Source of the DNA: Candidatus Saccharimonadota bacterium
GTDB taxonomy: Bacteria; Patescibacteriota; Microgenomatia; UBA1406; GWC2-37-13
DNA length: 32,000 nt
Direction: 5' to 3'
NCBI GenBank assembly: GCA_016700135.1
Contig: CP065004.1
Location: forward strand, 1,230,001-1,262,000
Under the pieces are notes generated by a model that had not been told where the DNA came from, ran no database searches, and saw only the letters and a program-made list of their open reading frames with translations. Positions 2,980 to 20,504 of this stretch are shown here, piece after piece (position 1 is the first letter of the stretch; each line of letters begins with the position of its first letter). The position numbers were made by a program, and so were the translations under genes.

Positions 2980-3228
2980 GTCTTCTTGATTGCACTCTCC
3001 TTCACACAATATTCATTTTAGACCGTTGTAATAATGCAATATGTACTTGTTATGATATAACACATATCCTATAAGAATAGTACAATTCCTCAATACATGG
3101 AGAAGTATTCCTTATAGTTACTACAAATTAGTTATTGTTCTGGATAAGTAAAGCATCTTACCTGAACGACTATTTGTATAAGCACTTTGACAACCGGATG
3201 CAAACAATACAGTGATTAAGAGAATAAA

Positions 3229-3279
3229 TCCTGACGGAGTATGAGGTTTGGAATATCCAGACTTGATAATCCGTCAGGA
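3229..3279 (+). promoter_or_regulatory. Extended stem-loop in the leader of the repeat-protein gene
   Basis: A 10-bp outer stem tcctgacgga/tccgtcagga (3229-3238 / 3270-3279) encloses an inner stem gtttgga/tccagac. It lies 60 nt upstream of the ATG at 3340, with no U-tract after it. Confidence 0.35.
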
Positions 3280-3339
3280 GGACGGAAGAAAAGAACAACT
3301 TCAGATTGAACACTCTCTACATGAAAGGACAGGTGTAAG

Positions 3340-6300
3340 ATGCGTTTCGTTCGAAGGATTCGTCAGGTTGTAACAATTGTCTGTATCGTTGTATATCTGC
3401 TGGCAAACGGGATTCCTCACGCTGATCCATCAAAGGTTGCACAAGCAGCCGGAACATTCACTATCAGTGGTATGGTCACCGTCAATGGACAAACAGTTTG
3501 GGACGGTTTTGGCGTGAAAATAACCGGAAGCCGTGGCACGACTATGTGGGCAGAGACTCGTGGAGGATGGTATCAGTTCACGGGGTTTTCCTCAGGAACA
3601 TATACCATCGGACACAACAGTAGTTGTACCCCTAATGCTCAGCTAATCTCCATTACAGGCAGCACTCGCTATGACATTCACTTGACATGCCAGACGTACA
3701 CTCTGGGCGGTTATGTGGCTATCAACGGCAAACCAGCCTGGAAAGGATTCGGAGTAAAGGCAACATTGGGTGATTGGAGTACCAAGTGGGGAGAAGTTGT
3801 GACGGATGACGGCTGGTATGAGTTTAAAGGCAGCAATGCTCTTATTGCCGGCAACTATGTCATACATCATAACCACAATTGCCCCTCGACAACCCCTGTC
3901 CCTATCTCGATTCCCGCGACCAACAACCGAGGACCTGATATAAACCTTGACTGCCCGACATACACTCTCAATGGGTATGTCAAGATAAACGGAGTCCCGG
4001 CATGGAAGGGTTTTGGAGTAAAGGCAACATTCGGAGACGGAACAACATTGTGGGCAAAAGTTGAGACTGATGATGGCTGGTATGAATTTCGTGATGCCAG
4101 TCGACTGATCCAAGGGAATTATGTGATCAGTCATAATCATAGCTGTCCTTCCAATGCCCCAATCCCTATCGGTATTCCTGCCACAAACAATCGCGGTCCT
4201 GATCTCTACCTGGATTGCCCGACTTTTCCGCTCCATGGCAAAGTCTATGTTAATGGAGAGCCTGCATGGAAAGGATTTGGTGTCAAGGTAACGATTAACG
4301 GCTGGATGACTAAATGGATTCAAACACAGGGTGATGATGGATATTACGAGTTTTCCGGAGGTAATGCGCTTCTCGAAGCCGACTATGTAATACATCACAA
4401 TCATCCGTGTGAATCAAACACCCCCGCCGGTATTCATGTCCCAGCAGCAAACAATCAAGGTCCGAATATTTACATTACCTGTCCTGATACAAAACATCCG
4501 CTCTATGGATACGTAACTGTAAATGGAAGACCTGCATGGAAAGGTTTCGGAGTAGCTGCAGCTCGCAAGAACGGCAGTACGAAGTGGGTTCTGACGGATA
4601 CAAGCGGCAGATATGAATTCAGTGGAGATGATATCCTCACTGAAGGCGAATACACAATTCGTCACAATCATAACTGCCCATCAAACAACGATGTCACGGT
4701 ATGGATTCCCAGCAATGGAAACCGGGGACCCGATTTTGACATCAGATGTCCTGCATACACTCTCTACGGCTATATCACAATTGACGGCACGCCCGCCTGG
4801 AAGGATTTTGGTGTAAAAGCCTCTCTCAAAGACGGTACGACTGTCTGGGCATTGACTGATGAGAACGGACGCTATGAGTTCAAAGGAGATGTCAGTCTGA
4901 TCGAAGCCGATTACACCATCCATCACAATCACCCGTGTCCATCTGATTCACCGACCAATGTTCACGTCCCATCAACAGGCAACCGAGGACCGGATATCCA
5001 TCTGACGTGCGGAAGTTTCAACCTGACCGGAAGAGTAACTGTTGATGGCAGCCCTGCTTGGAAGACTTTTGGAGTCAAGGCTGTGGGTAGCAATGGTAAA
5101 TCGTACTGGGCACTTGTTCATGACAATGACGGTCACTTTGCTTTTTCGAATCTGCCACGGGATACCTACTATGTGGGGCATGTTCACAACTGCGCTACTG
5201 AAGAGGGAAATCCCGTCACGATCGATCTGACAACTGACCGCTCAGCAGATTTCAACATCAAGTGTCAACCATCACCGGTACCTACACCTACACCGATCCC
5301 TATTGATCCTCCGGGAGGCTGCGTGGGATTAGAGACACGCGAGCGGCCAATGCAGCAATATAGCATCAAGCAAGATTTCGTTGCCTACTATATTGTTTCC
5401 AAAGCTACTTCTACTCTCAAATCAAACGCTTGTCCCGGTGCGATCTTTACGATTGGAGACATCACGACCGGTAAGCTTCTGTCGTTCGGATCCCATGGAA
5501 GCTACATTGATGTCTACAACGACGGTCGCATCAAAACCAACATAGAGAGCATCACCGCCAATCCTAAGTTTGAGTGCGGATTGGTCTGGGAAGTGATCAC
5601 GAACAAAAAGTATGCCTATTCATGTGAGACGTCCTACGGGGCATCGGCCAATTTGCCCAACCTCAACGGCAATATCACGCTGAACACGAAGATTGAGCAT
5701 GAAGTACATGTCCGAGGTGATCAACTTGCTTTGTCACTCGCATGGTCCATCTCAGAGATGACGAGGAAAGTTGAATCAATTAACATACAACTAACCGATC
5801 CCAATACGGTAGTAGGAATTTTTGGGTTAGGTATGATTGGTATGATACTCTACAACATGTCTCTCAAGTTCTTTGTATTTCCAATATTTTGGGGTGAGCC
5901 CAGTCCTGAACCGGCAGCAGTAGCGAGTAGCCTGAGTGATGAGCTTCCTGAAGAAATCCTCAGCGATCTCAAGGCAGCAATAGGTGAAGGTGCTGCTACT
6001 AAGGGTGTATGGTCAGAAATGGAAGTTTCCAGAGAAGGACCATCAACGCTGAAGCTTCAAGCTGACGGATTCAGCCCCACGGGTGGTGTCTATGTCCTTG
6101 TGACGGAAGATGAGTTGAGTTTCCCGAACGAAGCACCACTTCACGAAGGGAGCTATTCCGCTGATACTGATGGCCATGTCTATCTACAGATTCCATTGTC
6201 TGCATTGTCAGAGAAGCCTCTCGTAGTAATAGCCGTTGATCTTGAAGACTTCCGGTCACAGTACGCTCGGTATCTGAAAGGAGACATCGACGAGATTCAT

Positions 6301-6375
6301 TATCGAGGAACAGCAGCAGTTTTGCATTCGGACAATGTCACAAGCAGCCTTTACCTGCCTCTAGTCGAGCGGTAA
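3340..6375 (+). CDS. Large envelope protein: signal/anchor, 7 tandem ~85-88-aa domains, Pro/Thr linker, Cys-containing domain, one TM helix, acidic C-terminal tail
   Basis: 1011-codon ORF with an ATG start and an SD-like aaaggacaggtg upstream. The N-terminus is Arg-rich then hydrophobic, ending AQAAG. A TM segment VVGIFGLGMIGMILYNMSLKFFVFPIFW is encoded at nt 5809-5892. No enzyme motif recognised. Confidence 0.85.
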   Translation: MRFVRRIRQVVTIVCIVVYLLANGIPHADPSKVAQAAGTFTISGMVTVNGQTVWDGFGVKITGSRGTTMWAETRGGWYQFTGFSSGTYTIGHNSSCTPNAQLISITGSTRYDIHLTCQTYTLGGYVAINGKPAWKGFGVKATLGDWSTKWGEVVTDDGWYEFKGSNALIAGNYVIHHNHNCPSTTPVPISIPATNNRGPDINLDCPTYTLNGYVKINGVPAWKGFGVKATFGDGTTLWAKVETDDGWYEFRDASRLIQGNYVISHNHSCPSNAPIPIGIPATNNRGPDLYLDCPTFPLHGKVYVNGEPAWKGFGVKVTINGWMTKWIQTQGDDGYYEFSGGNALLEADYVIHHNHPCESNTPAGIHVPAANNQGPNIYITCPDTKHPLYGYVTVNGRPAWKGFGVAAARKNGSTKWVLTDTSGRYEFSGDDILTEGEYTIRHNHNCPSNNDVTVWIPSNGNRGPDFDIRCPAYTLYGYITIDGTPAWKDFGVKASLKDGTTVWALTDENGRYEFKGDVSLIEADYTIHHNHPCPSDSPTNVHVPSTGNRGPDIHLTCGSFNLTGRVTVDGSPAWKTFGVKAVGSNGKSYWALVHDNDGHFAFSNLPRDTYYVGHVHNCATEEGNPVTIDLTTDRSADFNIKCQPSPVPTPTPIPIDPPGGCVGLETRERPMQQYSIKQDFVAYYIVSKATSTLKSNACPGAIFTIGDITTGKLLSFGSHGSYIDVYNDGRIKTNIESITANPKFECGLVWEVITNKKYAYSCETSYGASANLPNLNGNITLNTKIEHEVHVRGDQLALSLAWSISEMTRKVESINIQLTDPNTVVGIFGLGMIGMILYNMSLKFFVFPIFWGEPSPEPAAVASSLSDELPEEILSDLKAAIGEGAATKGVWSEMEVSREGPSTLKLQADGFSPTGGVYVLVTEDELSFPNEAPLHEGSYSADTDGHVYLQIPLSALSEKPLVVIAVDLEDFRSQYARYLKGDIDEIHYRGTAAVLHSDNVTSSLYLPLVER
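3454..5268 (+). repeat. In-frame tandem coding repeat, seven units of about 255-276 nt
   Basis: Unit starts are at nt 3454, 3694, 3958, 4222, 4498, 4753 and 5014. Shared protein pattern: GYVxxNGxPAWKGFGVK...DDGWYEF...YxIxHNHxCPS...NxGPD...CP. Adjacent units R2 and R3 differ at many synonymous sites. Confidence 0.9.
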
Positions 6376-6382
6376 ATGGCAA

Positions 6383-6415
6383 TGTGGAGCACCTGGTAAC
6401 ACCAGGTGCTCCACA
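6383..6415 (+). terminator. Perfect 15-bp hairpin directly after the repeat-protein stop codon
   Basis: tgtggagcacctggt-aac-accaggtgctccaca starts 8 nt after the TAA at 6373-6375. No U-tract follows, so intrinsic termination is uncertain. Confidence 0.45.
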
Positions 6416-6445
6416 ATAGATTCTATTCCAATAATTGATACATAT

Positions 6446-6454
6446 TGATATAAT
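6446..6454 (+). promoter_or_regulatory. Extended -10 element TGATATAAT
   Basis: Matches the TGnTATAAT consensus exactly. It ends 7 nt before the ATG at 6462, which predicts a leaderless or near-leaderless transcript. Confidence 0.4.
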
Positions 6455-6461
6455 AAGCACT

Positions 6462-7187
6462 ATGAGTAACAACCAAAAAAAGCAAATAACTATATTTGAT
6501 TTTATATTTGAAATAATGCGGGGAACTTACCTTGCATTTCTTTTTTGCACGGGATTCGCAGGTTTGTTAATGGTTCTAGCATACAAATATACTTATGTTC
6601 CTTCTAATGTATTTTTGTATCTCATTGCTCATCCTTTTTTTGGATTAATAACTCTTGCAGTTTTAGTAATTCTTTTTTTTAGATACTTGCCTAGAGCTTT
6701 TTTTATAGCTAACAGGCTTCAATTCTCACAATCTAAGACGGCACGTGTTTATAATCATAATAAAAATGTATTAAAATCTAGCTTTTTTCAAAACAGCAAT
6801 ATAATTGTTAGCTTTTTAACGTTTAATATTATTTTAATTCTGTCGCTTCTTCAAACGATCGATGGTTTATTTTGGGGAAGACGATTAACCTCACTTAATG
6901 ATTTATTTAATGGTAAATATACTTCCTTCACCGATCCGGGTATGTGGATATGGTCATTGGTTTACTTTATTCAAATCTTGATCATATTCTTCTACCTAAA
7001 ATACAAATACGAATCCCCGAAACAGAAACCTCTCATTGATAAAACGATGGAGATATACAACAGTCCGGAAGCGGCACAATATCGGGAATCTAAATACGGA
7101 AGATATATCACCGTTTTTCTCCTCTCAGGATTCTGGATATTTCTCCACCAAATCGCACTTGTACTTATTCGTATTTTTAATCAATAA
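6462..7187 (+). CDS. Polytopic membrane protein, unknown family
   Basis: About five hydrophobic helices (e.g. YLAFLFCTGFAGLLMVLAY, MWIWSLVYFIQILIIFFYL). Sampled lines are ~30% GC. The track start at 6435 is TTG; the first ATG is at 6462. Confidence 0.6.
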   Translation: MSNNQKKQITIFDFIFEIMRGTYLAFLFCTGFAGLLMVLAYKYTYVPSNVFLYLIAHPFFGLITLAVLVILFFRYLPRAFFIANRLQFSQSKTARVYNHNKNVLKSSFFQNSNIIVSFLTFNIILILSLLQTIDGLFWGRRLTSLNDLFNGKYTSFTDPGMWIWSLVYFIQILIIFFYLKYKYESPKQKPLIDKTMEIYNSPEAAQYRESKYGRYITVFLLSGFWIFLHQIALVLIRIFNQ

Positions 7188-8066
7188 ATGAAAAACAAAG
7201 GAATCGTATTTATTATCGCTGCAATATGTATTGCACTTTTATATTTTGGTGCTACAAATCTCTCCCTTTTGCAAAATTCTTTACAAAAAGTGGGATTAGC
7301 AGAAGAACTGCATAAAGACTGGAACAGTCTCTATAGTAAACCATGTGGCATATATATAAAATACCCTGAAGACTGGGAAGCAATCTTACAGGAGAAGAAT
7401 GATCCGTTCTTAATGTGCCAAATTACTTTAGATGCACCGGGTAAAGGAGGAAGTATATTTATTAGTGGTAACGATAAAAACCATAACGATCAATACAATG
7501 ATGAAAAAAGGTATCCGACAGTTCGAAAAATCGGGAGATATAGCGGGCGGTACAATGAAACTTCCATTGATTGGTACTATGCTGAATCATATTATTTAGC
7601 TATTAATGATATAGCTTATGCAATCTCGTTCGAAACATCCAATAAAAACGATAAAGAAATTTTCTACGAGATTTTTGATACACTAACACTTCAAGAGTCC
7701 AATATTGATAAGTCATATGCAGATAATCCATACATTCCCAAAGAAGAAGACAGACCTTTATATTTTGACGGCCAGGAAATGAGCAAAGAGACATATTTAC
7801 TTATAAAAAATAATGAATCAAAACTGGATCAGTACGTAACGTCTACTGACACACAAAAGACTTTTAATGTAGAAGCTGCCAAAGCTGCAGGTTTTGATCC
7901 TATTGTTATCGAATATAAAACGGCATTTATCGAGTATCAAAACGCCTTTACCCAACAAATTCTTTCCCCTCCATCCACTGATCTTAAATTCATGAAAGTG
8001 ATGGATAAATATCCCATACTTAAACAATATATACTAGCTGAAAATAAATATAAAACTGTGAATTAA
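7188..8066 (+). CDS. Membrane-anchored or secreted protein, unknown family
   Basis: The ATG follows the upstream TAA with a 0-nt gap. An N-terminal hydrophobic segment GIVFIIAAICIALLYFGA precedes ~260 hydrophilic residues rich in Lys, Asn and Tyr. Confidence 0.6.
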   Translation: MKNKGIVFIIAAICIALLYFGATNLSLLQNSLQKVGLAEELHKDWNSLYSKPCGIYIKYPEDWEAILQEKNDPFLMCQITLDAPGKGGSIFISGNDKNHNDQYNDEKRYPTVRKIGRYSGRYNETSIDWYYAESYYLAINDIAYAISFETSNKNDKEIFYEIFDTLTLQESNIDKSYADNPYIPKEEDRPLYFDGQEMSKETYLLIKNNESKLDQYVTSTDTQKTFNVEAAKAAGFDPIVIEYKTAFIEYQNAFTQQILSPPSTDLKFMKVMDKYPILKQYILAENKYKTVN

Positions 8067-8081
8067 TTGGAAAATAAAATA

Positions 8082-8930
8082 ATGTCCCCATCCAATCTCA
8101 AACATGCCGTCACAGAAGGGTTGAAACTGGCAAAAGGAAGTTTTGTCATATTCCTCATATACTATTTCTTCAATGTCCTTATTTATGTTCATAGTACAGA
8201 ATTCCCCGAATACCTGAAGTATGCGTTATTTTATCTTCCCGTCTATATCGGTTTCGTGTGTTCCGTTCCGTCACTGCTTGATGCAATAAGAAAAAGCAAA
8301 CTGACCGCCGGACGATTACTCAAAGATACTCTGACTTCCTTGTGGAGACTTATTATACCGATGAGCGTTTTTGTATTTCTCATTGTCGCACCGATTGTGT
8401 ATCTCTACGAAAATAATCCGGCAATGCTGCGGAACTTTTTACTTGATGTACAGAAACAGCAGTCAGATTTTGCAATAACTGATTATCTAAGCTCTGCAAT
8501 CATCCTTTCCCTTTTTAGTTTCACGACCTGTTTCTTTTCTTTGGAAAAACGGAATGTTATTTCCGCTGTCTTTAGGAGTATCGGAGTAACAATACAAAAT
8601 CCTTTTTACCTTTTAATTTTAGTATTTGTTTCGTTTATCGAGATAATCATACGAAATGAACTCGAATTTGACACGCTCATCGGTAATATCCTTTTTGCAA
8701 TTCCGACAACATATCTTGTTGTAGTCATTGCATCTTCGAATGTTGTATATTTCCGTGAAGTGATACAAAAACCGTCTGAATCCGAAGCTCCTTCGCAAAT
8801 CCCTATCATTCGATGGCTTCAGACATCTTCACCTTCGCGGAATATGGCTTTGGTCCTTTTTGTACTGGTACTGTTTTACTTCCTTTCTGTTAACGCAACG
8901 GGCACGGTACCCCCAGGTATCGGAGAATGA
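8082..8930 (+). CDS. Polytopic membrane protein, unknown family
   Basis: About six hydrophobic segments. The ORF opens with TTG at 8067, directly after the upstream stop. The first in-frame ATG is at 8082, so the start is ambiguous. Confidence 0.55.
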   Translation: MSPSNLKHAVTEGLKLAKGSFVIFLIYYFFNVLIYVHSTEFPEYLKYALFYLPVYIGFVCSVPSLLDAIRKSKLTAGRLLKDTLTSLWRLIIPMSVFVFLIVAPIVYLYENNPAMLRNFLLDVQKQQSDFAITDYLSSAIILSLFSFTTCFFSLEKRNVISAVFRSIGVTIQNPFYLLILVFVSFIEIIIRNELEFDTLIGNILFAIPTTYLVVVIASSNVVYFREVIQKPSESEAPSQIPIIRWLQTSSPSRNMALVLFVLVLFYFLSVNATGTVPPGIGE

Positions 8931-8937
8931 TGAAGAT

Positions 8938-9402
8938 TTAAAGCAGCATCGCGACGACTACAAGAAGGATTCCTCCAGCCACAGCAGGAACATAATCAAA
9001 AACACCAGCCACGGGGAGATTCGTGACGGGTGTCGGTGTAGCTGTGACACCAGTTTCAGGAAGCTCAGTCGGTCCGGCAGTTGGGCTCATCAGTAAATCA
9101 ATAGTCGGAGTCGCACTCACAGCAGCACCTGTCGGTGTCACGGTCGGACTGGTACTTTGATACGGAATAGTCGGAGACGGTGAAGGAGAAGGACTCGACC
9201 CTGCCTGAGCCAGGAGGGGGTCTTCGTCAAGCGGATCATCCAGCAAAGGGTCATCTTCAGAAGCCTGACTATTGAGGAGTACCAAAGGATTGCTTCCATC
9301 CTGAATGAGATATACCAGATATCCGCCCGCAGCAACCAGTACCACTATTACAATAATCAAAATAGCAGATTTTGCATCCATTTGTTTCCCCATAGATTTC
9401 AT
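8938..9402 (-). CDS. Small Pro/Ser/Thr-rich envelope protein with an N-terminal TM and C-terminal LPETG / LPVAG sortase-like signals
   Basis: Features in order: N-terminal anchor AILIIVIVVLVAAGGYLVYLI, an acidic DDPLLDDPLDEDPLL stretch, SPSPSPSP and TPT low complexity, then ELPETG...NLPVAG followed by the hydrophobic end GGILLVVVAMLL. The track start at 9468 is TTG and overlaps mraY; the first ATG is at 9402. Confidence 0.55.
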   Translation of the reverse strand: MKSMGKQMDAKSAILIIVIVVLVAAGGYLVYLIQDGSNPLVLLNSQASEDDPLLDDPLDEDPLLAQAGSSPSPSPSPTIPYQSTSPTVTPTGAAVSATPTIDLLMSPTAGPTELPETGVTATPTPVTNLPVAGVFDYVPAVAGGILLVVVAMLL

Positions 9403-9451
9403 TGTAGTATGGATCGTTCGGAGTTGCAACGTGATCGGATATACCCGTATA

Positions 9452-10489
9452 TCACTTGAGGAAGGCAAGCATCAATCCGACAAGGGCAAACACGATGGAA
9501 AAAAGCCAGAATCGGAGAACGATTTTGGGCTCTTCCCATCCCAAGTATTGCAGAAGCAGATGAAGAGGTGCCGCGGGAAATACTTTCTTTTTGCGATACC
9601 GTTTACTCAGAAGCTGCACGAGCGAACTGAGGATTTCGAAGAAAAATACTCCTCCGATTATCGGAAGGGCAAATGCTTTCCCGAGAAGCAAACCGATCAC
9701 GGCAAACATAGCTCCGAACGATAATGCTCCCGTATCTCCCAAAAAAATACGTGCCGGATATATGTTGAAGTACAGGAACGCAATTAGTCCTCCCACCCAC
9801 ACGGCAATAAAGACGGAAAGAGGTACGTCAATAATAGTCCGTGCAACGGCCCAGAAGCTAAACAGTGCTATCATCAGTACTCCCGAAGCCAGACCGTCAA
9901 GCCCATCTGTGATATTGACTGCATTGGCAAAAGCGACAATTACGAAGGTTGAGAACAAGATATAGAAATAAGAAAAATCAAATACCCCGAAAAAAGGAAT
10001 ATGAATAATGCTAATACCGAGCATATTGTGAAGTGCTACGGAGATAATCAGTGCAAGGATGATCTCAATAATGAGTTTCAATCTCAATCTCATTCCGAAA
10101 AAATGTTTTTTCTCCCAGAAAAAGATTTTATTTAAGTCGTCATATATCCCCAACAGCCCGAAACTCACAAACGTAAACAGGATAATTGCCATTTCCCAAA
10201 CAATCGAAGGATAGTTCGAGTGCGTGTATATTCCGAAAAATTTGAAACTGCCCAGAAAAAATAACGTGAGAATTGTCGTAACGGCGATAACAAGGATCCC
10301 TCCACCCACCGGCGTACCGCTTTTATGCTGGTGAAATTTGTCAAAAATCGGAGTCGGCTTATTAAAAGCATCCAATGTCTGCTGCTTCGCCCGCTGAAAT
10401 TTTTTTACATACAGAAAATTAATAAACGGAATTATCAGGACAAAATGGATGATAAGGGAGATAATCGTAATGTAGAGATACAGCGCCAT
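9452..10489 (-). CDS. mraY: Phospho-N-acetylmuramoyl-pentapeptide transferase
   Basis: Polytopic membrane protein with the NAVNITDGLDGLA signature and a DDLNK motif. 345 aa. Confidence 0.9.
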   Translation of the reverse strand: MALYLYITIISLIIHFVLIIPFINFLYVKKFQRAKQQTLDAFNKPTPIFDKFHQHKSGTPVGGGILVIAVTTILTLFFLGSFKFFGIYTHSNYPSIVWEMAIILFTFVSFGLLGIYDDLNKIFFWEKKHFFGMRLRLKLIIEIILALIISVALHNMLGISIIHIPFFGVFDFSYFYILFSTFVIVAFANAVNITDGLDGLASGVLMIALFSFWAVARTIIDVPLSVFIAVWVGGLIAFLYFNIYPARIFLGDTGALSFGAMFAVIGLLLGKAFALPIIGGVFFFEILSSLVQLLSKRYRKKKVFPAAPLHLLLQYLGWEEPKIVLRFWLFSIVFALVGLMLAFLK

Positions 10490-10492
10490 AAA

Positions 10493-10864
10493 TCAGATAA
10501 GAGTGTTTAATAACAATAACAGCTTCGGTACAAATATCATAGACGCCCCGACCGCCGCTCCGATTGAATAAATGAGCATCGCTGCTGCCGATACATCTTT
10601 TGCGATCTTAATATTTTCATTGTAATTGAGATCGACGGCATCACCTACTTTTTCTATCGCAGTATTGAAGGTCTCAATGATAAGTCCGAGCATTGAAAGC
10701 GAAAGTATGATCAGCCATTCATGATACTTTATGTCCAGAAAGAATCCTACTGCAACCGACAAAAAAATGAAGAAAAAATGTGCACGATAATTGTGTTGTG
10801 TCCGGACAGCCCAGATAAGTCCGTCCAGGGCATGTCCGATTGAGTCTGCGTGTTTCCTTATCAT
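10493..10864 (-). CDS. dgkA: DgkA-family lipid kinase (diacylglycerol/undecaprenol kinase)
   Basis: 123 aa with three TM segments. ETFNTAIEKVGD and KDVSAAAML align with the prokaryotic DAGK signature E-x-x-N-[ST]-A-I-E. Its ATG overlaps the yvcK stop by 4 nt (ATGA). Confidence 0.8.
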   Translation of the reverse strand: MIRKHADSIGHALDGLIWAVRTQHNYRAHFFFIFLSVAVGFFLDIKYHEWLIILSLSMLGLIIETFNTAIEKVGDAVDLNYNENIKIAKDVSAAAMLIYSIGAAVGASMIFVPKLLLLLNTLI

Positions 10865-11847
10865 GCTGCTTGTTGTGGTTTGATAATATCCATTATGATC
10901 GGAGTCAGTTTTTTGGTGTCATGTCGCAAAATGCTTCGCGTCAGTTCATCCGATGTGCTTTTTGTAATATGACTCCTGCTAATGATATCTTCTTCAATTA
11001 TAGTACCTTGAAATCCGTTTTCGTTGAGATTATTCAAAACAGGAGATTCTTCATGGGATTCATACCATGAAAGGATGGGTGCGGGAATCTCTCCGTTGTT
11101 TGCAACGACATAATCCGGTTGTCGGCCGATATACTGTTCGAAATCATGAATGAAGTCGTTTGCAGTGTATCCCGTGGTTTGACCCGCTTTGGTCATCAAA
11201 TTCAGGTTGTAAATAATTTTCGCTTTTGATTTCTTCATCTCTTCACGAAGATTATCTACGAGAAGCACCGGAATAATACTGGTATACAAATCCCCGGGTC
11301 CGATAATGATGTAGTCAGATTCACGTATGCGCGACACGGCATCGGGATTTACGGCTGCTTCCGGCTCAAGATACGCACGTTTGATGCGAGACCGTTCCGG
11401 GTTGTCTTCATCGATATTCCCCTCCCCCTTTATAACGGTGCCGTTTTCGTATTCGACACAAAGATGAGTTTTTTCAAAGGTAACGGGAATGACTTTCCCT
11501 TTGGTATTCAGTACATAGCTCGCAGTCTCGATCACCGTGTTGTAGTCATCGCATACTTTTTCTAAAGCTGACAGGAAAATATTGCCGAAATTGTGGCCTT
11601 TCAGGTCACCGTTCTCAAACCGGTATAAAAACAGCTTTCTCCAAAGATCAGTGGAATCAGAAAGGGCAACCATACACTGCCTCAGATCTCCGGGAGGAAG
11701 TACTCCCAACTGGTCGCGCAGCCGTCCGGTCGAACCGCCCGAATCCATCATGGTGACAATAGCGGCAAGATCAAGTTCATGCTTTTTCAATCCGGAAAGA
11801 ACGACAAATGTTCCCGTGCCGCCTCCGATTACAGTTACTTTTTTCAT
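10861..11847 (-). CDS. yvcK: YvcK/CofD-family (UPF0052) protein
   Basis: N-terminal VIGGGTGTFVVLSGLK followed by MMDSGGSTGRLRD, which is typical of the YvcK gluconeogenesis-factor / 2-phospho-L-lactate transferase family. Confidence 0.75.
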   Translation of the reverse strand: MKKVTVIGGGTGTFVVLSGLKKHELDLAAIVTMMDSGGSTGRLRDQLGVLPPGDLRQCMVALSDSTDLWRKLFLYRFENGDLKGHNFGNIFLSALEKVCDDYNTVIETASYVLNTKGKVIPVTFEKTHLCVEYENGTVIKGEGNIDEDNPERSRIKRAYLEPEAAVNPDAVSRIRESDYIIIGPGDLYTSIIPVLLVDNLREEMKKSKAKIIYNLNLMTKAGQTTGYTANDFIHDFEQYIGRQPDYVVANNGEIPAPILSWYESHEESPVLNNLNENGFQGTIIEEDIISRSHITKSTSDELTRSILRHDTKKLTPIIMDIIKPQQAA

Positions 11848-12026
11848 TTTTTACTATATTGAATAATAATGCGAATAAGTTTTGAGGACTCATTACGCTT
11901 TTATAGGCTGTTTTGCTTTTGGTTTACCTGCTGATATACTACTATAGGAACCGAAAAGTGAGCTAAAAAAAAAGAGGATTAATTCCTCTCTTTACTCCTG
12001 TTATAATAAATTGTAACCTATTAACT

Positions 12027-13250
12027 ATGAAAAAACCACTTGTTGTTATCCTTGCAGGAGGGATAGGAACCTCTTTTAAACCACTTACTATAAACAAAAC
12101 TCTCATTCCGATTGCCGGTAAGCCTATGCTCCAGCATGTCATCGAGATGGTTGAGTCTGCGGGCTTCCACGAAGCTCTCATTATAACAAACCCCGAAAAT
12201 GAGGAGTGGCTTGCATCGTACCAGCCTTTTAACATTACGCTTCAAACAAACATCGTCAAACCGACCGGCATGGGAGATGCTCTTTTGCAGTCCGAACATG
12301 TCATCGGCAATCAGCCGGTTTTGATCATCAATGCATGTGACATTATAGACGGCATGTTCCTGAAAACGTTACTTCAGAAAACATACAATTCCTATGCATT
12401 CATCACCGGTCTTGAACTTGACACCTACTTTCCCGGCGGATACATCAAAATGGAAGGCACCCGGGCGACAGGACTGGTTGAAAAACCGGGAAAAGGGAAT
12501 GAACCGAGCAATCTTCTCAATCTTGTATTCCACTACTTTTCAGAGCCGCAGGACTTTTTCGGTTTTCTGAAAAAAACACCGACTTCAGATGATCAATACG
12601 AAAAAGCACTTCATGAACTTATGCAGCAGCGTCATATTGATGTCGTCCCTTATCACGGACCGTGGACAAAGCTGAAGTATTCCCATCACGTACTTGATAT
12701 GATGCAGGCACTTCTCGAACTCCGAACGAAAAACCATGTTGCAAGATCAGCTCATGTTTCCCCTCAGGCCGTCATTGAAGGAACAGTATATATTGATGAA
12801 GGAGCTCATATTGATGCCTACGCCGTCATCAAAGGTCCGGCATACATCGGACGTAATGCAAAAGTCGGGAATCATGCACTTGTCAGGCAATCCAGCATTG
12901 AAGAAGGTGCCATCGTGGGTTTCGGAAGTGAAGTAGCCAGAAGCTATATCGGCCCCAATTGCATGCTTCACCAGAATTTTGTCGGTGACTCCGTACTCGA
13001 ATCGGATATAAACCCGAGCTGGGGCACCACACTTGCCAACTGGAGGCTTGACCAGGGAGCAATCAAATTGAGATTGTCGGAGGAGACTATCGAGACTGAG
13101 AAAACCAAACTCGGTGCAGTGATTGCAAAAGGAGCTTTCATCGGCGTCAACTGTTCGGTCATGCCGGGCATCACAATCGGACGAAATGCAAAAATCTACC
13201 CCGGAACGGTAATAAAAGATCCTGTGAAAGACGATGAGACTTTGAAATGA
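12027..13250 (+). CDS. Bifunctional-type sugar-1-phosphate nucleotidyltransferase with a left-handed beta-helix acyltransferase domain (ST0452-like GlmU analogue)
   Basis: N-terminal LAGGIGTSFKPLT...IAGKPML nucleotidyltransferase signature. The C-terminal ~170 aa are hexapeptide repeats (VIEGTVYIDEGAHIDAYAVIKGPAYIGRNAKVGNHALV...FVGDSVL...GAVIAKGAFIGVNCSVMPGITIGRNAKIYPG). Length and layout resemble the archaeal ST0452 type as I recall it. Confidence 0.7.
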   Translation: MKKPLVVILAGGIGTSFKPLTINKTLIPIAGKPMLQHVIEMVESAGFHEALIITNPENEEWLASYQPFNITLQTNIVKPTGMGDALLQSEHVIGNQPVLIINACDIIDGMFLKTLLQKTYNSYAFITGLELDTYFPGGYIKMEGTRATGLVEKPGKGNEPSNLLNLVFHYFSEPQDFFGFLKKTPTSDDQYEKALHELMQQRHIDVVPYHGPWTKLKYSHHVLDMMQALLELRTKNHVARSAHVSPQAVIEGTVYIDEGAHIDAYAVIKGPAYIGRNAKVGNHALVRQSSIEEGAIVGFGSEVARSYIGPNCMLHQNFVGDSVLESDINPSWGTTLANWRLDQGAIKLRLSEETIETEKTKLGAVIAKGAFIGVNCSVMPGITIGRNAKIYPGTVIKDPVKDDETLK

Positions 13251-15599: not shown

Positions 15600-15646
15600 T
15601 ATCTGCTGGATTAAAATAATTAATTTCTGGTATGAGCGCAGTAATT

Positions 15647-15711
15647 AAAATTTGTGCAGAGGTGGATGTTCGAGCTGACAAATTCAGGCGAGTTCACCTC
15701 TAACAAATTTT
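15647..15711. repeat. 65-nt imperfect palindrome between murC and murB (hairpin family member D)
   Basis: aaaatttgtgcagaggtggatgttcgagc-tgacaaattca-ggcgagttcacctctaacaaatttt. The ends and the trailing (c)gattac match module 1 of copies A and B. The loop-proximal attcaggcgag resembles attccggcgag of module 2. Confidence 0.65.
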
Positions 15712-15741
15712 CGATTACAAGCGAATAATTTTGAAAAACGA

Positions 15742-20381: not shown

Positions 20382-20407
20382 AGTTCTTAAATAAGCGAAA
20401 ATAGAAA

Positions 20408-20475
20408 TTTTTTTGCGACTTGGGAGGTGCGCAGTCTAATGCTTTCGGACGAGCACGCCCACTGAGCATAGTAAA
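20408..20475 (+). repeat. Module-2-only hairpin element, copy C, between murE and pgeF
   Basis: T7-gcgacttgggaggtgcgcag is identical to copies A and B over 20 nt. The second arm cggacgagcacgcccactgagcata carries two changes and the loop sequence differs. Confidence 0.8.
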
Positions 20476-20504
20476 TTTCTATTGAGCGGATAACAGCTAG
20501 ATTT

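Follow-up and report, generated by a model that had tools for sequence, protein, structure and literature searches.

A probable strain-variable surface island beside a lineage-specific membrane-protein gene in a patescibacterial chromosome

Three closely packed genes, here called g1 (6462–7187), g2 (7188–8066) and g3 (8082–8930), lie on the plus strand of a 32,000-nucleotide stretch of contig CP065004.1 (positions 1,230,001 to 1,262,000; assembly GCA_016700135.1), which we call the window and whose coordinates are used throughout. The MraY protein encoded in the window has its closest relatives in metagenome-assembled genomes of Candidatus Roizmanbacteria, which belong to the Candidate Phyla Radiation (CPR)/Patescibacteria. 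The original prediction took the three genes for a self-contained operon, possibly an envelope, transport or secretion module. Having compared the locus with its relatives (labelled L001, L002 and so on), we lean towards a different reading, namely that the trio is two things: g1 and g2 would be the tail of a strain-variable surface island headed by the gene of a 1011-amino acid (aa) repeat protein, a variable cell-surface module, and g3 would be an independent neighbour. No more than 5–6 lineages are known, all of them metagenomic. The features of the island, with g3, are as follows.

2980–8081, plus strand: accessory island of 5.1 kb with the genes of the repeat protein, g1 and g2, flanked by the stop of tpiA and the start of g3.
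3340–6375, plus strand: gene of the 1011-aa surface protein, with Pfam matches to SdrD_B and CarboxypepD_reg.
6383–6415, plus strand: perfect 15-bp hairpin, arms 6383–6397 and 6401–6415, 100% complementary.
6425–6457, plus strand: promoter block (predicted) ATTCCAATAATTGATACATATTGATATAATAAG, 33 nt, with the extended −10 TGATATAAT at 6446–6454.
6462–7187, plus strand: g1, a 241-aa membrane protein with 5 transmembrane (TM) segments, from hydropathy and homologue alignment.
7188–8066, plus strand: g2, a 292-aa signal-anchored exoprotein, from hydropathy and homologue alignment.
8082–8930, plus strand: g3, which lies outside the island and encodes a membrane protein of 282 aa with about 7 TM segments.

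Limits, distribution and mosaic evolution of the island

The limits of the island are set by two relatives that do without it. In L002, whose core DNA is 93% identical to the window, and in L008, g3 follows directly on tpiA, with spacers of 9 nt and 55 nt, and the repeat protein, g1 and g2 are all missing; a blastn comparison of the window with L002 aligns 172–2977 and 8082–13000 at 91% identity and nothing between them. From this adjacency, taken together with the gap in the alignment, it follows that 2980–8081 is an accessory island. The core-gene tree pairs the window with L002 and L004 with L008, beside L006 and L094 and with L012 outside, and the island is carried by one member of each sister pair (the window but not L002, L004 but not L008). 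As the junctions left behind differ in length and there is one in each pair, the simplest history would be two independent losses by deletion.

In 4 of the 4 lineages where the region is visible (the window, L004, L006/L090 and L092), a long repeat protein is followed by g1 and g2 in the same order, with 0 to 4 extra small envelope genes between the repeat protein and g1; in a fifth lineage, L094, the contig begins inside g1 and the genes upstream are not visible. The same arrangement recurs in the independent assemblies L001, L006, L007 and L090, which makes it unlikely that the identities between lineages are assembly chimeras. g1 and g2 are present only with the long form of the repeat protein, and L002 and L008, which lack that protein, lack them as well. 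The suspected tie between the trio and the neighbouring surface protein is thereby borne out for g1 and g2, as it also is by the recurrence of the C-terminal domain of g2 inside the repeat proteins of sister lineages, described below.

The behaviour of g3 is different. All members of the close clade have it, L094 with a copy that is 42% identical; it is absent from L012, finds no match in 80 other Roizmanbacteria loci and has 4 relatives among 5.8 billion proteins, all of the same clade. Its tree matches the core-gene tree, and its ratio of non-synonymous to synonymous divergence (dN/dS) is 0.07–0.20. These patterns point to a vertically inherited, lineage-specific 7-TM gene that is independent of the island. 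The gene-neighbourhood comparison that had been proposed along with the original prediction thus splits the trio in L002 and L008, the outcome named there as speaking against a conserved unit, and that part of the proposal does not survive: g3 stands by itself behind tpiA in these genomes, tracks the core tree and is unrelated to g1, a paralogy of the two genes having been rejected at an hhalign probability of 0.1%.

The gene models needed small corrections. All four g3 homologues begin with MS... at the ATG at 8082, and L002 has the in-frame stop of tpiA 9 nt before this ATG; together these observations rule out the TTG at 8067 as the g3 start. The gap between g2 and g3 is therefore 15 nt and not the 0 nt first read, whereas the open reading frames themselves and the 0-nt junction of g1 with g2 (TAAATG) stand. 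The products were correctly typed as a 5-TM protein (g1) and an anchored exoprotein (g2); g3 has about 7 TM segments by hydropathy, not about 6. Across the genes dN/dS is 0.07–0.32, a sign of purifying selection which confirms that they are real.

Within the island, variable cassettes alternate with constant segments. The N-terminal 148 aa of g1 (6462–6905) are hypervariable, with 32–39% pairwise identity among four alleles, and the C-terminal 93 aa (6906–7187) are near-constant, with 87–92% identity among the same four and a synonymous divergence (dS) of about 0.5, core genes exceeding 1.1. g2 comes as two alleles that are 27% identical. Allele A is common to the window, L006 and L092 at 93% protein identity, with a dS between the window and L006 of 0.19, against 1.1–3.2 in flanking core genes; allele B is common to L004 and L094, two lineages whose DNA is 93.5% identical from the C-terminal part of g1 through g2 into the first ~170 nt of g3 and 79% identical in the core. 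At the DNA level, either allele is ~93% identical between lineages with core genes that are ~80% identical. The alternation, together with the high identity shared across lineages, indicates that cassettes were exchanged between lineages by recombination. Homologous recombination would use the constant segments as anchors, namely the promoter block, the C-terminal part of g1 and the 5′ end of g3.

Base composition singles out part of the same region. The stretch 6462–8066 has a guanine plus cytosine (GC) content of 0.326, the lowest for any stretch of that length in the window (mean 0.434, standard deviation (sd) 0.035), and GC at third codon positions (GC3) is 0.30 in g1 and 0.28 in g2, against 0.38–0.60 in 21 other genes. 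The windowed GC and codon-position statistics thus uphold the outlier noticed originally, although not its extent over the whole trio: GC3 is uneven along g1 (0.22 in the first 148 codons, 0.415 in the last 93) and ordinary in g3 (0.38). In every lineage the small island genes (the N-terminal part of g1, g2 and others) have a GC3 of 0.22–0.34, and the C-terminal part of g1, g3 and the repeat protein have a normal one. The compositional anomaly consists of the N-terminal part of g1 and of g2 only and, since low GC holds at third codon positions, it is not an amino-acid artefact.

Products and signals of the locus

The 1011-aa protein has an N-terminal signal or anchor, about 7 immunoglobulin (Ig)-like repeats of ~88 aa (a period of 261–270 nt at the DNA level) and a C-terminal extension, aa 643–1011, with a TM segment near aa 823–850. 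Its Pfam matches are to SdrD_B (2.6e-13, 50.6 bits, cut-off 29.7) and CarboxypepD_reg (8.8e-9, 36.0 bits, cut-off 32.3). The protein is conserved to about aa 557–642, beyond which it is lineage-specific or mosaic; the DNA similarity of its gene to L004, L006 and L092 ends at ~5010, and the extension of the window protein has no match in any compared locus, in Pfam or in the PDB. Each repeat (3340–5265) carries a His-rich HHNHxCP-type motif and a second Cys, hence two Cys per repeat, which suggests metal binding or disulfides in an Ig-like (SdrD_B/CarboxypepD_reg) fold. In L004, L006 and L092, the repeat proteins are of a kind we call type B, which ends in a Trp/Cys-rich domain of ~140 aa (CVCG..., PRGEP..NWPY..W..YV.WWH; L004 5400–5854, L006 1500–1951 and L092 2800–3244) that is mosaic between lineages and has no Pfam or PDB match.

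Two hairpins accompany this gene. The perfect 15-bp hairpin, noticed originally just upstream of g1, starts 7 nt past the stop of the repeat-protein gene, has a folding energy of −30 kcal/mol (z = −5.8) and is not followed by a U-run. It is part of the window-specific 3′ end of the repeat gene, conservation with other lineages resuming only downstream of it, and is likely to be a transcript-end or stabiliser structure. An imperfect hairpin at 3229–3279, with 24-nt arms that are 83% complementary, lies ~60 nt upstream of the repeat-protein ATG and is kept in L004 and L092; it may be a regulatory structure of the 5′ untranslated region.

Upstream of g1, the extended −10 of the original prediction is confirmed: TGATATAAT ends 7 nt ahead of the ATG at 6462 and lies inside an invariant block. 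The 33 nt of this block are identical in all lineages with a visible g1 upstream region (the window, L004, L006/L090 and L092), where its flanks have diverged, and it occurs once in the window. g1 is therefore predicted to have its own conserved promoter and, as the −10 ends so close to the ATG, its mRNA would probably be leaderless. The TTG at 6435 was discarded as a start codon, its frame being broken by a 1-nt indel in L004. g1 is built of a variable N-terminal module with 3 TM segments and a constant C-terminal one with 2. Only 3 relatives were found among 5.8 billion proteins, all of the same clade.

g1 and g2 meet at the 0-nt junction caaTAAATGaaa, the TAAATG of which is kept in 5 lineages (the window, L004, L006, L092 and L094), and translation of g2 is predicted to be coupled to that of g1 through UAAAUG. 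By hydropathy g2 has a TM segment at aa 1–29, followed by 263 hydrophilic residues. Two domains can be told apart in the latter. The N domain, at about aa 43–184, has two invariant Cys, which like the TM predictions point to an envelope location, and is also found in the proteins P0012 and P0013 (176 aa); its 'I.YPe.W' motif may hint at a PsbP/DcrB/Mog1-like alpha-beta sandwich. Pfam gave no match here, the profile of this domain (3 homologues) had its best PDB match at E = 0.036, to an uncharacterised protein, and model confidence (pLDDT) was below 50. The C domain, ~100 aa at about aa 193–292, recurs in small signal-anchored proteins of sister lineages and in repeat proteins: aa 198–292 of g2 match a 138-aa protein of L004 (E = 1.6e-14) and aa 568–714 of the L004 repeat protein (E = 4e-7), where it is an internal segment of the C-terminal extension; further homologues are a 129-aa protein of L092 and internal segments of the extensions of the L006 and L092 repeat proteins. 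A hidden Markov model built from this domain matches island genes only. A single g2 relative, of the same clade, was found among 5.8 billion proteins, and a filter-free HMMER search against 1.84 billion representatives gave 5 matches, of which 4 are real and one is a spurious eukaryotic low-complexity protein. In L006 (3545–3550), and likewise in L001 and L007, g2 is thrown out of frame by the loss of 2 bp directly behind the signal anchor, a change present in three independent assemblies; in this lineage g2 may be decaying, or may be expressed without its anchor.

Family searches across the locus support the original view that none of the three genes has a recognisable family. For g1, g2 and g3, there was no Pfam match at E ≤ 1, nothing in PHROGs or PADLOC and no NCBIfam family, the sole NCBIfam line for g1 (formate dehydrogenase cytochrome b556) scoring 16.6 bits against a cut-off of 341, which we read as TM composition. 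PDB sequence profile searches with g1, g3 and both g2 domains returned nothing better than E = 0.036, and the profile searches that had been proposed, like the Foldseek search of g2, gave no confident match to unrelated known families. The idea that g3 could be a DUF975/YciC-like membrane protein was dropped when Pfam hmmscan gave nothing at E ≤ 1. AlphaFold2 models had a pLDDT of 43.3 for g3 and 45.7 for g2, the latter being confident only at aa 198–257 and below 50 for aa 16–195. The three genes each represent a new protein family, and the shared C domain of g2 is new as well. When the C-terminus of the repeat protein and the island genes of L004 and L006 were scanned against Pfam, NCBIfam, PHROGs and PADLOC, the sole real match was a HIT domain in L004. 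It belongs to a membrane-anchored HIT-family (histidine triad) protein at 6336–6848, which has normal GC3 and sits among AT-rich small island genes, an unusual location for a nucleotide hydrolase.

Candidate surface assembly and rival explanations

Our preferred reading starts from the 1011-aa Ig-repeat surface protein as the head of the island and from g1-g2 as its conserved two-gene tail. g1 would be a membrane platform and g2 a membrane-tethered, two-domain extracytoplasmic protein, and with the Ig-repeat protein they would complete a strain-variable surface structure whose parts would associate through the shared ~100-aa domain. It would most likely serve host or phage interaction, as an adhesin or receptor complex. 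Such a structure would face the diversifying or frequency-dependent selection typical of determinants of host or phage interaction. In the window g3 would merely be co-transcribed with g1 and g2, since the island lies upstream of it. We found no terminator-like sites between the three genes and no promoter-like site in 8000–8081, and with gaps of 0 and 15 nt a single transcript could span them; in L002, g3 would share its transcript with tpiA. Epibiotic growth of cultivated Patescibacteria depends on adhesins and envelope proteins, and natural competence occurs in these bacteria (PMC10633639), findings which offer a plausible context and an exchange route for island alleles.

Several observations weigh against this reading. 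That the repeat protein, g1 and g2 were lost together says little about functional coupling, because loss occurs by contiguous deletion. The extension of the window's own repeat protein has no g2-like domain, so that the argument from domain sharing rests on the sister lineages. The frameshift in L006 implies that g2 can fall to decay in a lineage that keeps g1 and the repeat protein. Structure models of g2 and g3 are poor, and a Foldseek search of g2 against the PDB found no match at E < 0.8. Finally, the physical interaction and the surface role are inferred from sequence features. A bolder version, to which we would give only a small chance, is that the locus is a hitherto undescribed surface recognition system specific to the CPR. 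The shared domain would be a new docking module that mounts swappable cassettes on the g1 platform, and the cassettes would set the host or phage specificity of an episymbiont; the platform would then comprise the constant C-terminal hairpin and the hypervariable N-terminal module of g1, and cassettes would be swapped via natural transformation.

One rival is a polymorphic toxin/immunity-like system, with a repeat stalk bearing a variable C-terminal effector and with g1, g2 and, in other lineages, the genes of 138, 136, 159 and 141 aa as immunity or orphan cassettes. The end of conservation at ~aa 557–642 of the repeat protein would fit, as would small, AT-rich downstream genes whose number varies and which are exchanged horizontally, and a g2-C-like piece of the repeat-protein C-terminus that recurs downstream as orphan toxin cassettes do. 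We nevertheless consider it unlikely, since Pfam and PDB searches, which covered the C-terminal extensions of the window and of L004, revealed no toxin, pre-toxin or immunity domain in an extension or a downstream gene, and cognate pairing is not apparent: type B C-termini (L004, L006, L092) go with g1 N-terminal alleles that are only 32–37% identical, and g2 allele A is found with both type A and type B C-termini. A constant C-terminal half of g1 behind an invariant promoter is untypical of immunity genes, and g2 and the 138-aa proteins bear signal anchors of their own. Quite improbable, in our judgement, is that g1-g2 form a selfish or recently imported AT-rich cassette (a mobile-element or prophage remnant, or an exclusion/defence pair) with no tie to the repeat protein. 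Low GC3, transfer between lineages and the unrelated cargo of L014, L039, L030 and L031 at the same slot could be understood in this way; against it stand the lack of an integrase, transposase, tRNA or terminal repeats, the lack of PHROG, PADLOC or IMG/VR relatives, and the constant position after the long repeat protein, with which the cassette has a domain in common.

The original proposal, that g1, g2 and g3 are one dedicated operon encoding an envelope, transport or secretion machine which exports or anchors the 1011-aa protein, can draw on the common strand, the short gaps, the lack of internal terminator-like or promoter-like sites and the fact that, by TM prediction, all three products are envelope proteins, the part of the proposal that holds. 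It is very improbable given that g3 occurs in L002 and L008 without g1, g2 or the repeat protein, that L012 has a short repeat protein without any of the three genes, and that g3 is inherited vertically whereas g1-g2 are exchanged horizontally; moreover, no transporter, ATPase, secretin, translocase or other secretion domain and no structural match was detected. We give almost no credence to the remaining possibility, that AT-richness is a by-product of membrane-protein amino-acid composition in ordinary core genes. The residues F, I, L, Y, N and K abound in g1 and g3, and GC at second codon positions is low in many genes, but g1 and g2 have GC3 values ~3 sd below those of other genes, most of g2 is soluble, the membrane proteins MraY, MurJ and g3 have normal GC3, and g1 and g2 are absent from sister genomes.

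Chromosomal slot and known systems

The island sits at the edge of a cell-wall and division cluster, the neighbouring genes being uvrD/pcrA, tpiA, mraY, dagK, cofD-like, murA, murB, murC, kup, murE/F-like, a penicillin-binding protein gene, mraW, mraZ, murJ, yceG and ftsK. The right edge of the variable slot is formed by one further gene.

8938–9468, minus strand: LPETG-protein gene, convergent with g3.

Its product is small, with an N-terminal TM segment, a P/T/S-rich spacer, LPETG and a hydrophobic C-terminus, and resembles a sortase substrate, though without the basic tail; the gene is kept beside mraY in ~20 Roizmanbacteria loci. In 11 Roizmanbacteria that are more distant, it is convergent with tpiA, at a distance of 14–150 nt. 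Across 22 loci the slot between these two genes is empty or holds g3 alone, the island or other cargo, such as two unannotated open reading frames in L039 (372 aa and 173 aa), one small one each in L030 and L031 (129 aa and 148 aa), and a 490-aa short repeat protein, with none of g1, g2 and g3, in L012 (UBA1450), the next-closest relative and outgroup. The cargo of L014 is presumably a PIN-like gene, judging by a reading of the translated frame. The slot is a recombination hot spot. tpiA itself (2305–2979) is 89% identical to L002 in amino acids with a dS of 0.82, as compared with 99% and 0.39–0.62 for uvrD and mraY, a divergence consistent with recombination tracts that extend beyond the variable slot and into this neighbouring core gene.

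An intergenic element of 150–200 nt is repeated in the window at 1–145, 2068–2270 and 20406–20477, with a partial copy at 15640–15722 on the minus strand. Its core has a U-run, a long imperfect GC-rich hairpin (GCGACUUGGGAGGUGCGCAG...CGAGCACGCCCACAGAGC) and an A-run, and it resembles a bidirectional terminator or a REP-like (repetitive extragenic palindromic) element. Copies flank uvrD on both sides, L002 also has four, and the element is nearly absent from more distant Roizmanbacteria. An Rfam scan of the whole window, the element included, gave no family.

The island does not have the marks of a classical mobile genomic island or prophage. No flanking direct repeats were found, nor tRNAs (window-wide), nor an integrase among the Pfam hits of island proteins; scans of IMG/VR and of viral and metagenome contigs brought up no relatives of viral origin, and the 2 JGI loci that they yielded belong to lineages already known. 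An origin from a diversity-generating retroelement was rejected, as there was no direct repeat pair besides the Ig-repeat period and the intergenic elements and no reverse transcriptase among the scanned window genes, and an integron or mobile-element origin was rejected for want of repeats, reverse transcriptase, integrase and tRNA. What we do find is a slot with shared flanks, presence and absence of the cargo, and allelic replacement, that is, a flexible genomic island at a conserved position.

With polymorphic toxins (CdiA, Rhs, LXG) the locus shares a constant N-terminal stalk, a variable C-terminus, AT-rich small downstream genes and a recurring piece of the large protein; it differs from them in having no recognisable toxin, pre-toxin or immunity domain and no TpsB, type VI secretion system or Esx partner, and in that the g1 alleles vary independently of the C-terminal type. 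Like Gram-positive adhesins of the SdrD B-like/CarboxypepD_reg kind, the 1011-aa protein has a signal and tandem repeats and passes the Pfam thresholds, but it has no C-terminal LPXTG, it carries HHNHxCP in its repeats and a lineage-specific extension, and Sdr loci contain nothing that corresponds to g1, g2 or g3. The adhesins found by transposon sequencing in Saccharibacteria are alike in their CPR host, envelope association, unknown or adhesin-like function and competence route; Roizmanbacteria are another phylum-level lineage, uncultured, and are likened to them by context and not by sequence (PMC10633639).

CPR/Patescibacteria are thought to live attached to hosts, so that surface proteins, nearly all of them unannotated, are likely determinants of host range. 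The locus is a compact and well-delimited case of variation in such genes, combining a hot spot, a swappable C-terminus and a two-gene cassette whose alleles cross lineages that differ by ~20% in core DNA. In otherwise syntenic prokaryotic populations, flexible ('replacement' or 'additive') genomic islands carry the genes of surface structures, and the present island is like them in its fixed slot, strain-specific envelope cargo, atypical composition, recombined divergent alleles and lack of mobility genes. It is unlike them in measuring 5 kb only, in its CPR host and in its cargo, a giant Ig-repeat protein and two new families in place of the usual glycosyltransferase, O-antigen or S-layer (surface layer) genes. 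The locus is thus a narrow-clade flexible island, of a familiar evolutionary type and not a new mechanism.

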